Positions 6,383 to 12,553 of a stretch of DNA of 16,811 nucleotides are shown piece after piece. Under the pieces are notes generated by a model. The model did not search any database and was not told the origin of the DNA. It saw only the letters and a program-made list of their open reading frames with translations. Source of the DNA: an uncultured archaeon (lineage in GTDB: Archaea; Hadarchaeota; Hadarchaeia; Hadarchaeales; Hadarchaeaceae); assembly GCA_937921735.1 (NCBI GenBank), contig CAKZTQ010000055.1:1-16811 (forward strand), read 5' to 3'. The first letter of the stretch is position 1. Every line of letters starts with the position of its first letter. The position numbers were made by a program, and so were the translations under genes.

Positions 6383-6455
6383 GGCCGAGGTGGTGTAGCG
6401 GTCAACATCGGGGACTGTGGATCCCCTGACCCGGGTTCGAATCCCGGCCTCGGCC
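6383..6455 (+). tRNA. tRNA-His(GUG), with G-1 genomically encoded and no encoded CCA
   Basis: Acceptor stem GCCGAGG/CCTCGGC, anticodon arm GGGGA-CT-GTG-GA-TCCCC (GTG at 6417-6419), T-loop GGTTCGAATCC and C73 discriminator. ATAAATA TATA-like box at 6352-6358. Confidence 0.96.
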
Positions 6456-6467
6456 CCTTGATTTGGG

Positions 6468-6925: not shown

Positions 6926-8401
<1,476 letters not shown>

Positions 8402-8434
8402 ACGATGCTATATTTGGGGTGCCGAACCCTCGGA

Positions 8435-8506
8435 GGGCCCGTAGCTCAGTGGTAGAGCGTCGGCTTTGCAAGCCGAAGGCCCCGGGTTCGAGTCCCGGCG
8501 GGTCCA
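8435..8506 (+). tRNA. tRNA-Ala(UGC) in the 16S-23S spacer
   Basis: Acceptor GGGCCCG/CGGGTCC with G3.U70, anticodon arm TCGGC-TT-TGC-AA-GCCGA, GGTTCGAGTCC T-arm and A73. CCA is not encoded. Confidence 0.97.
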
Positions 8507-10651
8507 CATTCGATGCAGCCCGTGAAGACCACTTCATGGGTGAAGGGCAAAATTGCGATTGCAAGATGATTGCCACGCATAGGTCTGCTTAGCGCTGGCT
8601 GGGTTCAAAAGGAAACGAACGCCTAAGCCACCTGGGGGATAGCTCGGCTCGGGCGCCGAGGAAGGCCGTGGCAAGCAGCGAAATGCTCGGGCGAGGCGCA
8701 GGCGGCCCTTGAACCCGAGATCGCCGAATGGGACTTCCTGGCGGGGGGTAACCCCCGTCGTTCGCGGCAGCGAACGGGAACCCCGGGAACGGAAACATCT
8801 TAGTACCGGGAGGAAAAGAAAGCAACCGCGATGCCCTGAGTAACGGCGAGTGAAAAGGGCAGAGGGCAAACCGAACCCGGTGGCGAAAGTCACTGGGGAT
8901 GTGGGGTTGTAGGACCCTTCCCAATCCCTAGCGCGGGAAGCCGAAGTCGGCTGGAAGGCCGCGCCGGAGAGGGTGAAAGCCCCGTAGGCGTAACTGCGCG
9001 GGGTACGAGGGAGGGGATCCTGAGTAGGATGCCTTGGAAATGGTGTCCGAAGCTGGGAGGCATCAACTCCCAACCCTAAATACGTCCCGAGACCGATAGC
9101 GGACGCAGTACCGCGAGGGAAAGCTGAAAAGTACCCCGGAAGGGGGGTGAAAAGAGCTTGAAACCAGGTGGCGATAGTTGGACACGGCTCGAAAGGGTTG
9201 AGTCTCCCCGAAGGAACCCGCGGCGACGCGGTAGTACGAGGGGAGAGGACCGGGGTCGTGTCGTCCGTCTGGAATCACGGGCCAGGGAGTTCATCGTCGT
9301 GGCGAGGCTAAGGGGTCAAACCCCGGAGCCGTAGCGAAAGCGAAAGGTCCGCATCGCGAAAGCGAGAGGGACTGGGTGCGAAAGCGCCCGGAGTCACGGC
9401 GATGAGACCCGAAACCGGGTGATCTAGTCCGGGGTAGGATGAAGCCGACCGATAGGTCGGTGGAGGTCCGAACCGGTCTTGACGTGCAATTCGGTCGGAT
9501 GACCTCGGGCTAGTGGCGAAAGACCCATCAAACCCGGTGACAGCTGGTTCCTCCCGAAGCTGGCCGCAGTCAGGCCCAGCGCGAGGTCGCCGGCGGCGTA
9601 GAGCACCGATTGGTGGGATACGGGGGGAAACCCTCGGCTCACCTGTCGAACTCCGAAGTCGTCGGCACCGTAGACCGCTGGAGACGGGATGCGGGGGGTA
9701 AGCTCCCGCTCCGAGAGGGGAACAACCCAGACCAGGGTTAAGGCCCCAAAATGCCGGCTAAGTGTGAAAACAAAGGGCGTCCCCGTCCTTAGACAGCGGG
9801 GAGGTAGGCTCAGAAGCAGCCATCCTTTAAACAACGCGTAACAGCGGACCCGTCGAGGGCGGGGGCCCCGAAAATGGACGGGGCTAAGCCGGCTGCCGAG
9901 ACCCTGGGGCGGGCGAAGTTCAGTAGCCCGATCCGGTAGGGAGGCGCCCGGCGCGGGGAGAAGCTCGGGCGTGAGCTCGGGTGGACCGCGTTGGGATGAG
10001 GATCCTGGCGGTAGTAGCAGCAAAGTGGGGTGAGAATCCCCACCGCCGAAGGGGCCCGGGTTCCTCGACAATGATCGTCAGTCGAGGGTTAGTCGGTCCT
10101 AAGGCCGCCCTCAACCAGAGGCGGTCGAAGGGGAAACCGGTTAAAATTCCGGTACCACCCAGGTACCTGCGGCAACGCAAGCCCGGCTTCCGACGCTTCG
10201 GGGTAGGCCGAGCGGGGTCGTCGCCCCGTCTAACTTGCGGAAGCCCGGGGAGTTCCGTAATGGAGAGAACCGGGCGAACGCGGGAATGGCCTGCCGCAAG
10301 GTGGGTTCGGCTGATCCCTGGAGCCCGTGAAAAGGGAGCCGGGAAATGGGACCCTGGGTGACCGTACCTAGATCCGACACAGGTGCCCCTAGGTGAGAAG
10401 CCTAAGGCGTGTCGGGAGACCCCAGGCCAGGGAATTCGGCAAGTTAGCCCCGTGACTTAGGGCGAAGGGGTGCCTGCTCCGCGAAGGAGCAGGTCGCAGT
10501 GACAAGGGGGGGCCGACTGTTTAATAAAAACGTAGCTAACCGCTAGCCCGAAAGGGTGAGTACGGTTAGTGAATTCTGCCCACCGGCGGTACGTGAAGGC
10601 CCGGTTCAACGGGCAGAAGCGCCGCCAAGGGGCGGGGGTAACTATAACCCT

Positions 10652-11507
10652 CGAGAAGGGGGTTGTAAAACCCGGCTGTATGCGGGGAAGACGTGACCGG
10701 GGATGGACTACTCCAAGGAGTAACAAGGTTCATCTCCGATGAGGTCGACCCGCAGGAAACCCCGGAGGGCCAGGGAGGCTTAAATAATAGAGTCCCTCTT
10801 AAATTGACAACGATGACGGAGTCGCTACCGTACCTGATTGGCGTGATGCTCGGTGATGGCGGTGTCTATGGAAACTCGTACACGGTATTCTGCAGAGACA
10901 GGAGCAGAGAGTTCGCGGAGAGCGTTGCCAAGATCGTCGAGAAAATCTTCAACTTCACACCGAGGGTGAACAGAGCTTCACCGAACAGTTGGATCGTGAG
11001 TACCAACCGCAGGGATGTTCACAGGTTCTTCGTGAAAATCGGGTATCCGAAGGGGAGGAAGCTCACGACCCTCGGGATACCGAGGATCTTCACCGCGGAC
11101 AAGGATTCAAGATTGGAGGTCGCCAGAGGACTATTTGATGCGGAGGGCTACTGCGGAATCGACAGGCAGAGACATGGGGAGAAAGTGTATAGCTATCCGT
11201 ACGTTGGAATAGACATGATCACCGGACCACTTGTCAAACAATTGCGTGGAATCCTGAGGGAGGTCACGATCGAGAGCGCGATCTCGATCAAGAGGCGCAG
11301 GGCATGGGGAAAGAATCCGCAGTTTTCGCTCGTGATCAAGGGTCTGGAGAGGGTCAGAAAGTTCAGGGACGTGATCGGCTTCAGACATCCCGAGAAGAGG
11401 GAAAAGCTCGATTGGCTCGTTGAAGGGGGATCCTCAGAGACCATACGCCGGGCGCACCGGAATGTGTGCGATGATATGGTCCACCCTTCCGAAAAAGTGG
11501 AAGGGAG
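10652..11507 (+). mobile_element. Group I intron (IB-like) at 23S position L1923, 856 nt
   Basis: Interrupts TATAACCCT^CTTAAGGTAG. P1 AACCCU/GGGGUU has U.G at the 5' splice site. P3 CCCGGC/GCCGGG, P4 TGCGGG/CCCGCA, P6 GGA/TCC, P7 GAGACCA/TGGTCC, J8/7 ATGATA, P8 CGCAC/GTGCG, P9 CCCTTCC/GGAAGGG and terminal omega-G at 11507. Confidence 0.93.
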
Positions 11508-11517
11508 CTTAAGGTAG
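10813..11517 (+). CDS. Intron-encoded double-motif LAGLIDADG homing endonuclease (234 aa from ATG10813)
   Basis: Motif 1 YLIGVMLGDG, motif 2 VARGLFDAEG, with KGRK between them and the tail F...IGFRHPEK. The ORF starts in the P6 loop. The GTG10693 extension runs through ribozyme helices and is unlikely to be the start. Confidence 0.9.
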   Translation: MTESLPYLIGVMLGDGGVYGNSYTVFCRDRSREFAESVAKIVEKIFNFTPRVNRASPNSWIVSTNRRDVHRFFVKIGYPKGRKLTTLGIPRIFTADKDSRLEVARGLFDAEGYCGIDRQRHGEKVYSYPYVGIDMITGPLVKQLRGILREVTIESAISIKRRRAWGKNPQFSLVIKGLERVRKFRDVIGFRHPEKREKLDWLVEGGSSETIRRAHRNVCDDMVHPSEKVEGSLR

Positions 11518-11522
11518 CGTAA

Positions 11523-11554
<32 letters not shown>

Positions 11555-12137
11555 GGAATCAACGAGCCCCCCACTGTCCCGGCCTGGGCCCCGGTGAACC
11601 CACTGGCCGGCGAACATGCCGGGGACCCCCGAAGGGAAACGAAGACCCCGTGGACCTTCACTGCAGCCTGCCGTTGGGGCGCGATCGTGGGTGTAGAGCG
11701 TAGGCGGGAGCCAAAGCTGGGTCGAAAGGCCCGGTGGAGGCGCCAATGTAACACCGCCCTCCTGCGGTTGCGTTCCTAACCCCAAAAGGGGACCGCGGTA
11801 GGTGGGCAGTTTCGCTGGGGCGGCAGCCTCTCGAAAGGATATCGAGAGGGCCCAAAGGTCGGCTTAGGCGGGTCAGAAATCCGCCGTGAAGGGCAAGGCC
11901 AAAAGCCGGCCTGACTGCGTCCTCAACACCAAGGGACGCAGGGGCGAAAGCCTGGCCTAGCGAACCCCGATGTCCCTCTTGATGAGGGCTCGGGATGACA
12001 GAAAAGGTACCCCGGGGATAACAGAGTTGTCGCGGGCGAGAGCCCCCATCGACCCCGCGGCTTGCTACCTCGATGTCGGTTCTTCCTATCCTGGCCGTGC
12101 AGCAGCGGCCAAGGGTGGGGTTGTTCGCCCATTAAAA

Positions 12138-12179
<42 letters not shown>

Positions 12180-12553
12180 TGCTATCTTTCGGGGGTGCTG
12201 GGTACCTGAGGGGAAGGTGGCCTCAGTACGAGAGGAACAGGTCACCGGCGCCTCTGGTTTACCGGTTGTCCGACAGGGCACAGCCGGGCAGCTACGCGCC
12301 AGCCGATAAGGCCTGAAAGCATCTAAGGCCGAAGCGGCCCTCGAAAATAGGTACCCATTTCCGGCGGCTCCGAAAGGGGCGCTCGCGCCGGCGACGGCGC
12401 GGGAAGCCGGAACAAGGGCTGGGGCTAGAAGACCCCGTTGATAGGCCGGGGGTGTAAGCGCGAAGCTCAGGCGACGCGCTCAGCCCGCCGGTACTAATCG
12501 CCCGAGGTTCGTTTCCTTTAACCCAAGGCGATGGGCAGACCTATGCGTGGCGC

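Follow-up and report, generated by a model that had tools for sequence, protein, structure and literature searches.

Group I introns occur in the 23S ribosomal RNA (rRNA) genes of bacteria, those of Thermotoga and Coxiella among them, and in Crenarchaeota the characterised rRNA introns with LAGLIDADG genes are of the bulge-helix-bulge (BHB) type. Position 1923 of the large-subunit (LSU) rRNA, L1923, is presumably the site of the chloroplast intron of Chlamydomonas eugametos that encodes I-CeuI, a one-motif enzyme acting as a dimer; a literature search on both terms returned no paper. Here we analysed a 16,811-nucleotide (nt) stretch of DNA, called the window below, from an uncultured archaeon of the class Hadarchaeia (contig CAKZTQ010000055.1), whose 23S gene carries an insert at positions 10652-11507. 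The insert is very probably a mobile group I intron at L1923 with a LAGLIDADG gene in its loop L6, and it is a further case of the group I introns already predicted at LSU/1923 in other archaeal phyla.

Those predictions were made by Nawrocki, Jones and Eddy (2018, PMC6125680; statements about this paper refer, here and below, to the part of it consulted). No significant archaeal match came there from the Rfam model RF00028 (Intron_gpI) or from ten of the subtype models, and the 39 archaeal introns that the authors list were found only via the IB4 and IA3 models. LSU/1923 is among the previously observed group I sites, and ten of the IB4 introns lie at it: six in Aigarchaeota, Micrarchaeota, Pacearchaeota or Aenigmarchaeota, two in Thaumarchaeota (with a conflicting or GenBank-only label) and two that are unassigned or carry conflicting labels. 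For the Euryarchaeota the paper gives only IA3 introns at LSU/2500, on contigs of the Hadesarchaea study, and one IB4 intron at LSU/1931.

The intron of the window resembles this IB4 LSU/1923 set (IB4.7,.9,.11,.13,.17,.18,.20,.21,.28) in having an archaeal 23S host and the same position, in the LAGLIDADG gene that many of them carry, in being missed by RF00028 and in being a product of computation. It differs in the host class, Hadarchaeia, since the Hadesarchaea contigs of Nawrocki et al. carry IA3 introns at LSU/2500. No accession is shared between our loci and their table, as consulted, and we infer that the two sets are one family. An earlier note on the window had overstated the novelty of an archaeal group I intron at L1923, as ten of subtype IB4 were already listed in that paper. 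The literature that we searched, a scope outside which most subscription-journal papers fall, held no later report of an LSU/1923 intron in Hadesarchaea.

The insert and its host gene

The 23S gene of the window (8610-12517) matches the Rfam archaeal model (LSU_rRNA_archaea) end to end with 2731 bits, and is 3908 nt long compared with the 2987 positions of the model. Its sequence reads ...AACTATAACCCT / CGAGAAGGGGGTTG ... GGAAGGGAG / CTTAAGGTAGCG, with one large insert of 856 nt between the slashes, whose boundaries are ambiguous by one base because a C stands on either side. The earlier note had placed the insert at the same coordinates, between ...AACCCT and CTTAAGG..., and both the sequence and the Rfam match confirm this. 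We take the last exon base, U10651, to be U1923 of the Escherichia coli 23S rRNA. Relatives with the same core are inserted 6 nt upstream, where the 3' exon starts with AACGGTCCTAAGG; this spacing fits the series of sites 1917 and 1923 and thus supports the numbering. The gene has no second large insert and therefore lacks the LSU/2500 intron described for Hadesarchaea contigs.

Covariation of the core

The helices were drawn by hand on the window and then counted on two alignments. The larger one holds 29 distinct complete introns at L1923 among the matches listed, eight exact duplicates having been dropped; the smaller one holds nine Hadarchaeia introns, that of the window included, which were taken by similarity search and independently of the core pattern described below. 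As controls, the partners were slid by one to three columns, and 500 shuffles were scored by five measures.

In the 29 introns, 91.3% of the 1895 pair cells were standard pairs, as against 36.5-48.1% in the slid controls, and both sides had changed in 42 of the 68 pairs. The nine Hadarchaeia introns were 98.3% paired, as against 37.6-52.1% when slid, with both-side changes in 16 of 53 pairs. None of the 500 shuffles reached any of the five measures in the larger alignment, nor four of the five in the smaller, where the fifth, further pair types, was not significant (213 of 500 shuffles); the sequences are kin, which makes all these shuffle counts overstate significance. More weight attaches to the slid controls and to the independent double changes. 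Every core helix takes part in the larger alignment to some degree (Table 1), and the P5a-c extension is 74-87% paired, in a region where the alignment is less sure. Among the nine close relatives P6 is 100% paired and shows three double changes, each of them a separate C-G to U-A switch, and P7 has one double change, AU to GC in L004.

Telling changes also lie in P1, where the intron's guide answers changes in the exon. One pair is AU in 16 introns and GC in 13, and three pairs go from CG to GC; these double changes track the exon differences among archaea, DPANN-type hosts and bacteria. The combinations of guide and exon are GGGGUU with AACCCU, GGGGUC with GACCCU, GCCGUU with AACGGU (bacterial), GCGGUC with GACCGU and GGCCUC with GAGGCU. 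The block GGATCCTCAGAGACCATACGCC is read in three frames in different introns, as ...GGSSETIRRA, ...GGILRDHTPR and ...GDPQRPYA, and is therefore conserved as RNA and not as protein. The full core described in the earlier note (P1 with its U.G pair, P3, P4, P6, P7 with the guanosine-binding site, P8, P9 and the terminal guanosine) could thus be placed entirely, with covariation in its support. P10, which the note had called possible, stays so: the AAG of the P1 loop and the CUU of the 3' exon form three base pairs, two of which are kept in 26-29 of the 29 introns and the third in 20 of the 28 with letters there.

Besides the kinship of the sequences, several observations weigh against the group I assignment. 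The search pattern fixed P7 and the first two bases of P3' in 20 of the 29 sequences, and invariance there arises by construction. P4 is invariant among the nine close relatives, and P10, 96.3% paired in the same nine, shows no double change. The Rfam Intron_gpI search, which the earlier note had named beforehand as a check able to refute its claim, found no such intron: at the Rfam cut-offs the window returned only rRNA and tRNA, and at a loose threshold (E up to 10) RF00028 gave 12.8 bits (E 2.1), below the cut-off of 50. The model stayed below that cut-off on all three introns bearing an open reading frame (ORF) that were scored (the window, L016 and L033) and on three of eight ORF-less relatives with the same core (L060, L042 and L067). 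A DNA run, X2, holds intron-less junction contigs with a variant exon, from relatives. Within the literature scope given above, we found no experimental work on an archaeal group I intron.

To these points some answers can be given. Because the pattern fixes P7 and two P3' bases, the count was repeated on the nine introns found by similarity, as reported above. The failure of RF00028 on the window is not decisive because the 661-nt insert in L6 splits the core, and it says little because the same model found none of the archaeal introns of Nawrocki et al. (PMC6125680). Five of the eight ORF-less relatives did reach the cut-off with 51-64 bits (L051, 64.3; L074, 59.6; L025, 51.4; L088, 51.2; L024, 51.0). 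On L051, P1, P3, P4, P5, P6, P8 and P9 of the Rfam alignment coincide with our hand-drawn helices, and the order of the P4-P5-P6 domain after P3 matches the Rfam consensus. The 12.8-bit alignment of the window itself was rejected as a structural guide, as it squeezes the whole model into 11363-11503.

Relatives and distribution

When the 65 genomes of the class were searched by similarity, eight besides that of the window proved to hold full-length copies, with 64-80% identity and all at the same 23S position as the intron of the window; two short matches (21 and 25 bases) were disregarded. The intron is thus present in nine genomes, the site is empty in 14, and no genome shows both states. 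The remaining 42 genomes show neither state, most likely since assemblies often miss the rRNA genes. In two genera the states are mixed, one with two genomes carrying the intron and four lacking it, the other with two and one, respectively. This patchy distribution is as a homing element predicts.

A core pattern built from J6/7-P7-P3' and J8/7-P7' (J denoting the joining segments) reached further, matching 49 genome contigs and at least 121 metagenome contigs. The matches listed include 23S genes of many bacterial phyla and of archaea labelled Nitrososphaerota, Calditenuaceae/Caldarchaeales, Aenigmatarchaeota and Micrarchaeota; these archaea belong to the lineages of the L1923 introns of Nawrocki et al. 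(PMC6125680). To judge by eye from the flanking sequence, the matches listed also include two tRNA genes and one 16S gene. In the Anaerolineae contigs L026 and L039 the core is followed by an apparent tRNA 3' half ending in CCA, and in L069 by 16S-like sequence (all by eye), which indicates that the core family is not confined to 23S genes. Some bacterial 23S stretches contain several group I introns, with three RF00028 matches in L074 and two in L088, and one metagenome contig holds the core pattern twice (L079/L080), 742 nt apart.

The likeness to the bacterial 23S introns (L013-L061) is close. J6/7-P7-P3' and J8/7-P7' are near-identical, P1, P3, P4 and P6 follow one layout, and each guide fits the exon at its own site. 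The bacterial introns differ in lying mostly at the site 6 nt upstream, in having 60-100 nt more after P9, in pairing with bacterial exon sequence and in that many have no ORF. One bacterial relative, L051, is an ORF-less intron of 285 nt at L1923 itself. The core is of a type that bacterial and archaeal 23S introns have, and its subtype is probably IB4. Taken together, the covarying secondary structure, the homology to relatives recognised by RF00028, the ORF in loop L6 and the patchy distribution support the identification of the insert as a group I intron, in agreement with what the earlier note had proposed for L1923 of this archaeal 23S gene.

Structural elements and operon

All 68 drawn pairs of the window are standard (43 G-C, 21 A-U and 4 G.U, none unpaired), and 63% of them are G-C, compared with 53% in the helices of the bacterial relative L051. 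The placement of the elements is given in Table 1.

Table 1. Elements of the intron in the window, with pairing and double changes (pairs changed on both sides) counted over 29 introns
Feature	Position	Strand	Paired	Double-changed pairs	Support or remark
5' exon end = P1 5' strand	10643-10651	+	89.7%	4/9	U10651 is the splice-site U of U.G; U.G in 29/29
Group I intron, 856 nt (very probable)	10652-11507	+			Rfam 23S match, sequence, covariation
P10 5' strand (AAG, P1 loop)	10656-10658	+			possible pairing with 3'-exon CUU 11508-11510
Internal guide sequence = P1 3' strand	10659-10667	+			U10651.G10659 at splice site; guide varies with facing exon
P3 5' strand	10671-10676	+	100%	4/6	pairs with 11447-11452
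P4 5' strand	10681-10686	+	100%	1/6	pairs with 10749-10754; one pair GC 24 / UA 5
P5 (10690-92 with 10744-46) and extension P5a-c (10699-10737)	10690-10746	+	93.8% (P5)	3/3 (P5)	near-invariant UAACAA in extension
P6 5' strand	10755-10763	+	95.0%	4/7	pairs across the ORF with 11425-11433
Loop L6 (661 nt), contains endonuclease gene	10764-11424	+			ORF-less relatives close P6 by a short loop here
Junction copy CCCTCTTAA	10794-10802	+			9 bases, 10 nt before start codon
LAGLIDADG homing-endonuclease ORF (predicted)	10813-11517	+			234 codons plus TAG in 3' exon; folded part to about codon 204 (about 11424)
P6 3' strand	11425-11433	+			pairing and covariation counts
J6/7 (11434-36) and P7 5' strand (11437-44)	11434-11444	+	100% (P7)	1/7 (P7)	bulged A11438; G11439 of presumed guanosine-binding G-C pair
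P3 3' strand	11447-11452	+			same pairs as Rfam's P3 in L051
P8 hairpin (11453-57 with 11466-70)	11453-11470	+	98.6%	4/5	pairing and covariation counts
J8/7 (11471-75) and P7 3' strand (11476-82)	11471-11482	+			alignment of 29 introns
P9 hairpin (11484-90 with 11499-505)	11484-11505	+	81.1%	7/7	91.8% paired in the nine introns
Terminal guanosine (omega-G)	11507	+			G in 29/29 complete introns
3' exon start = P10 3' strand	11508-11510	+			pairs with 10656-10658

The P5 extension is either dispensable or variable, as it is partly duplicated in L133 (a 33-nt tandem duplication of the P5b/c arm, columns 110-142 of the 29-intron alignment) and missing in L005 and L011 (Candidatus Hadarchaeum), where a short hairpin replaces the P5b/c arm. 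Two further helices were considered and rejected. An extended P3 (10678-79 with 11445-46, and further into CAUA) would place an A opposite an invariant C in most relatives, and it is P7' with which the CAUA bases covary. A P6a helix at the start of L6 (GAGAG with CUCUU) has a predicted energy of -1.2 kcal/mol and shows no covariation.

The rRNA operon of the window, the single one seen, runs tRNA-His (6384-6457), 16S (6926-8402), tRNA-Ala (8435-8507) and 23S; no 5S gene follows the 23S gene in the window.

The endonuclease gene in L6

The ORF that starts at ATG 10813 matches the Pfam family LAGLIDADG_3 (PF14528) with an E value of 7.1e-13 and has two motifs, ...MLGDGG... and ...LFDAEGY.... Their acidic residues, D15 and E111, do not vary among the 19 homologues aligned, a set that left out L036, L090, L099 and L135, in which the Asp of the first motif is replaced. 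Based on these features, the product is predicted to be a two-motif, monomer-type LAGLIDADG homing endonuclease with both acidic motif residues. In the four introns left out, the catalytic Asp is N or S and the RNA helices remain paired; they probably contain decaying endonuclease genes in still-structured introns.

The AlphaFold model of the protein has a mean predicted local distance difference test (pLDDT) score of 84.6. It is ordered up to about residue 204, and residues 208-234 score below 50 and are disordered. The fold of the model ends where P6' begins (11425), which indicates that the tail is a read-through of the ribozyme core: the frame of the window passes P6', P7, P8 and P9 to a TAG in the 3' exon and adds 27-30 residues. 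A frame that stops in the 3' exon was found in 5 of the 27 ORF-bearing introns and, with a chance frame in the ORF-less L060, in 6 of the 29 overall. The remaining introns stop in J8/7 or earlier, and the core is read in differing frames. In the ORF-less introns L051 and L060 only a short loop closes P6, from which we conclude that the endonuclease gene is an insertion.

A phmmer search with the endonuclease against solved structures gave no match. Profile and fold (Foldseek) searches identified archaeal enzymes, I-Tsp061I, the intein enzyme PI-PfuI and I-DmoI, as the nearest solved folds. The best fold match was I-Tsp061I (2dch, whose title names an archaeal homing endonuclease encoded by an intron), with an E value of 1.1e-12, a template-modelling (TM) score of 0.74 on the target and 19% identity, and the I-DmoI chains scored TM 0.65-0.71. 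The intron thus shares with those of I-Tsp061I and I-DmoI an archaeal rRNA host and the monomeric two-motif endonuclease fold; it differs from them in that sequence identity is only 14-19% and that the RNA is group I rather than a BHB substrate. With the intron encoding I-CeuI the likeness lies in the group I type, the 23S position and the possession of a LAGLIDADG gene. The difference from I-CeuI lies in the two-motif LAGLIDADG_3 protein and in the nearest folds being archaeal. A thermostable 23S-intron endonuclease from a hydrothermal site, I-MG11, was dismissed as a relative at this site, as it targets a different 23S sequence according to the part of PMC13748971 consulted.

The endonuclease family is not the same in all introns at L1923. 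The Hadarchaeia introns and those of the Caldarchaeales group carry two-motif LAGLIDADG_3 genes, and the DPANN-type introns L033, L035 and L049 carry, at the same site and in the same loop, one-domain LAGLIDADG_1 genes of 171-189 amino acids. The site is therefore colonised by two unrelated endonuclease families.

A copy of the exon junction upstream of the gene

The nine bases CCCTCTTAA in L6 repeat the junction of the ligated exons exactly, with four bases from one side and five from the other. This junction copy occurs once in the window, where 0.16 occurrences are expected, and is kept in 8 of the 29 L1923 introns, which are eight of the nine Hadarchaeia genome introns and none of the 20 others. 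In these eight it always lies 13-24 nt before the start codon. An A/T-rich box, TTAAATAATA, is found at 10780-10789, about 30 nt before ATG 10813, and relatives have ATAACA-like boxes there; no Shine-Dalgarno-like bases precede ATG 10813 in the window.

Several functions may be considered. The box TTAAATAATA could be an archaeal TATA element that gives a leaderless endonuclease transcript from inside the intron, and the junction copy could be part of such an internal promoter. The copy could also be a footprint of an endonuclease gene that invaded an ORF-less intron at a look-alike target, following the model of Loizos et al. as described in PMC3984707 (in the part consulted). Quite improbable, in our estimate, is a further reading in which the guide sequence of the intron itself uses the copy, CCCUCUUAA, as a working target. 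If so, the guide and the P10 bases would bind the copy again after splicing, and the terminal G or water would cut after CCCU. The RNA starting just before the start codon would then be released or circularised, which would amount to a ribozyme-made, near-leaderless endonuclease messenger in an archaeon.

Splicing, homing and alternative explanations

The established group I pathway would apply to this intron as follows. The guide would pair with the last nine exon bases and bring U10651.G10659 into the active site, where an external guanosine, held at the G-C pair of P7 (G11439-C11481, beside the bulged A11438), would attack after U10651. The terminal G11507 would then occupy the guanosine site, P10 would align the 3' exon, and the freed exon end would attack after G11507, so that ...AACCCU is joined to CUUAAGG.... 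The endonuclease is expected to cut intron-less 23S alleles, whose repair would copy the intron in. Catalysis, independence of protein, thermostability and endonuclease activity are properties that we infer, the self-splicing and the thermostability proposed in the earlier note included. A thermostable ribozyme is plausible; the rRNAs of the window have 61-64% G+C, and of the sequencing runs that have words in common with the stretch, at shares of at most 0.37, most bear a hot-spring label.

Sequencing runs were searched as assembled contigs, and in four runs 10729-11386 had no covering contig. In the RNA library X9 a 171-nt contig is identical to 10490-10652 and continues with 3' exon bases; in the RNA library X20 one contig joins 10651 to 11508; and library X5, labelled metatranscriptomic and probably DNA, has 14 contigs with the exon-exon joint. 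The exact joint across ...AACCCT and CTTAAGG..., which the earlier note had proposed to look for in RNA reads, is found in contigs of RNA libraries. The junction contigs of the DNA run X2 indicate that intron-less relatives exist as DNA in such communities. The joints in the RNA libraries are compatible with splicing and, because such relatives exist, are no proof of it for this gene.

An RNA that is group I by descent might still lack autonomy and splice only with the LAGLIDADG protein as a maturase, or with a host factor. We regard this as unlikely. In its favour, the peripheral elements are small (no P2, a short P5 extension and a single short P9), L005 and L011 have no P5 extension at all, P9 is followed by long extensions in the bacterial relatives, 1p8k, a bifunctional endonuclease and splicing factor, stands at rank 22 of the fold matches, and catalysis is itself a prediction. 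The core helices are nevertheless complete and rich in G-C pairs, and the four relatives with a replaced first-motif Asp keep their RNA structure, which argues against the need for an active enzyme but does not bear on a role as maturase. In bacteria, small 23S introns of this type are reported by Nesbo and Doolittle (2003) to self-splice in vitro. That the insert is a dead relic, decayed and unspliced, with a fragmented rRNA or a non-functional gene as its consequence, seems very improbable. Once fixed, homing endonuclease genes and their introns are known to decay, the first catalytic Asp is gone in some relatives, and the ORF of the window runs through the ribozyme core into the exon. Yet the insert lies in the only rRNA operon seen, in a 23S gene that otherwise matches its model end to end; every drawn pair is standard; and the U.G pair, the terminal G and the guide are intact, the guide following the changes of the exon. 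The site also belongs to one of the most conserved stretches of 23S rRNA, where an 856-nt insert that is not removed would be expected to do harm.

The archaeal host and the archaeal relatives of the endonuclease would suit a BHB intron, cut by the tRNA-splicing endonuclease with a ligase sealing the exons, as I-Tsp061I and I-DmoI presumably come from introns spliced in this way. We nonetheless find this explanation hardly credible. We scanned every register in which two 3-nt bulges lie no more than 3 nt from the junctions, a scope that does not take in relaxed one-bulge forms. The best case for the window had three of four central pairs, three outer pairs and no inner pair, and its bulges missed the splice sites; over 12 introns no arrangement was conserved, and the best cases differed between introns. 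No h-B-H-B-h' structure could be drawn at the junctions, which agrees with the statement of the earlier note, and the ends of the intron take part in P1, P10 and P9 instead, with covariation. The same core also occurs in rRNA genes of bacteria, which are not known to possess the archaeal splicing endonuclease, and this argues against BHB splicing.

Significance

As a group I intron at LSU/1923, the insert adds the Hadarchaeia, small-genome and heat-associated archaea, to the hosts of such introns. Its relatives, eight in genomes and a further seven on metagenome contigs, provide comparative support beyond a single model score. The compact core, of about 195 nt without L6, makes the intron a practical candidate for a first splicing test of an archaeal group I intron. 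One ribozyme and one site that have received two unrelated endonuclease families, one of which has its nearest folds in the enzymes of archaeal rRNA introns and inteins, bear on how endonuclease genes move between archaeal intron types.

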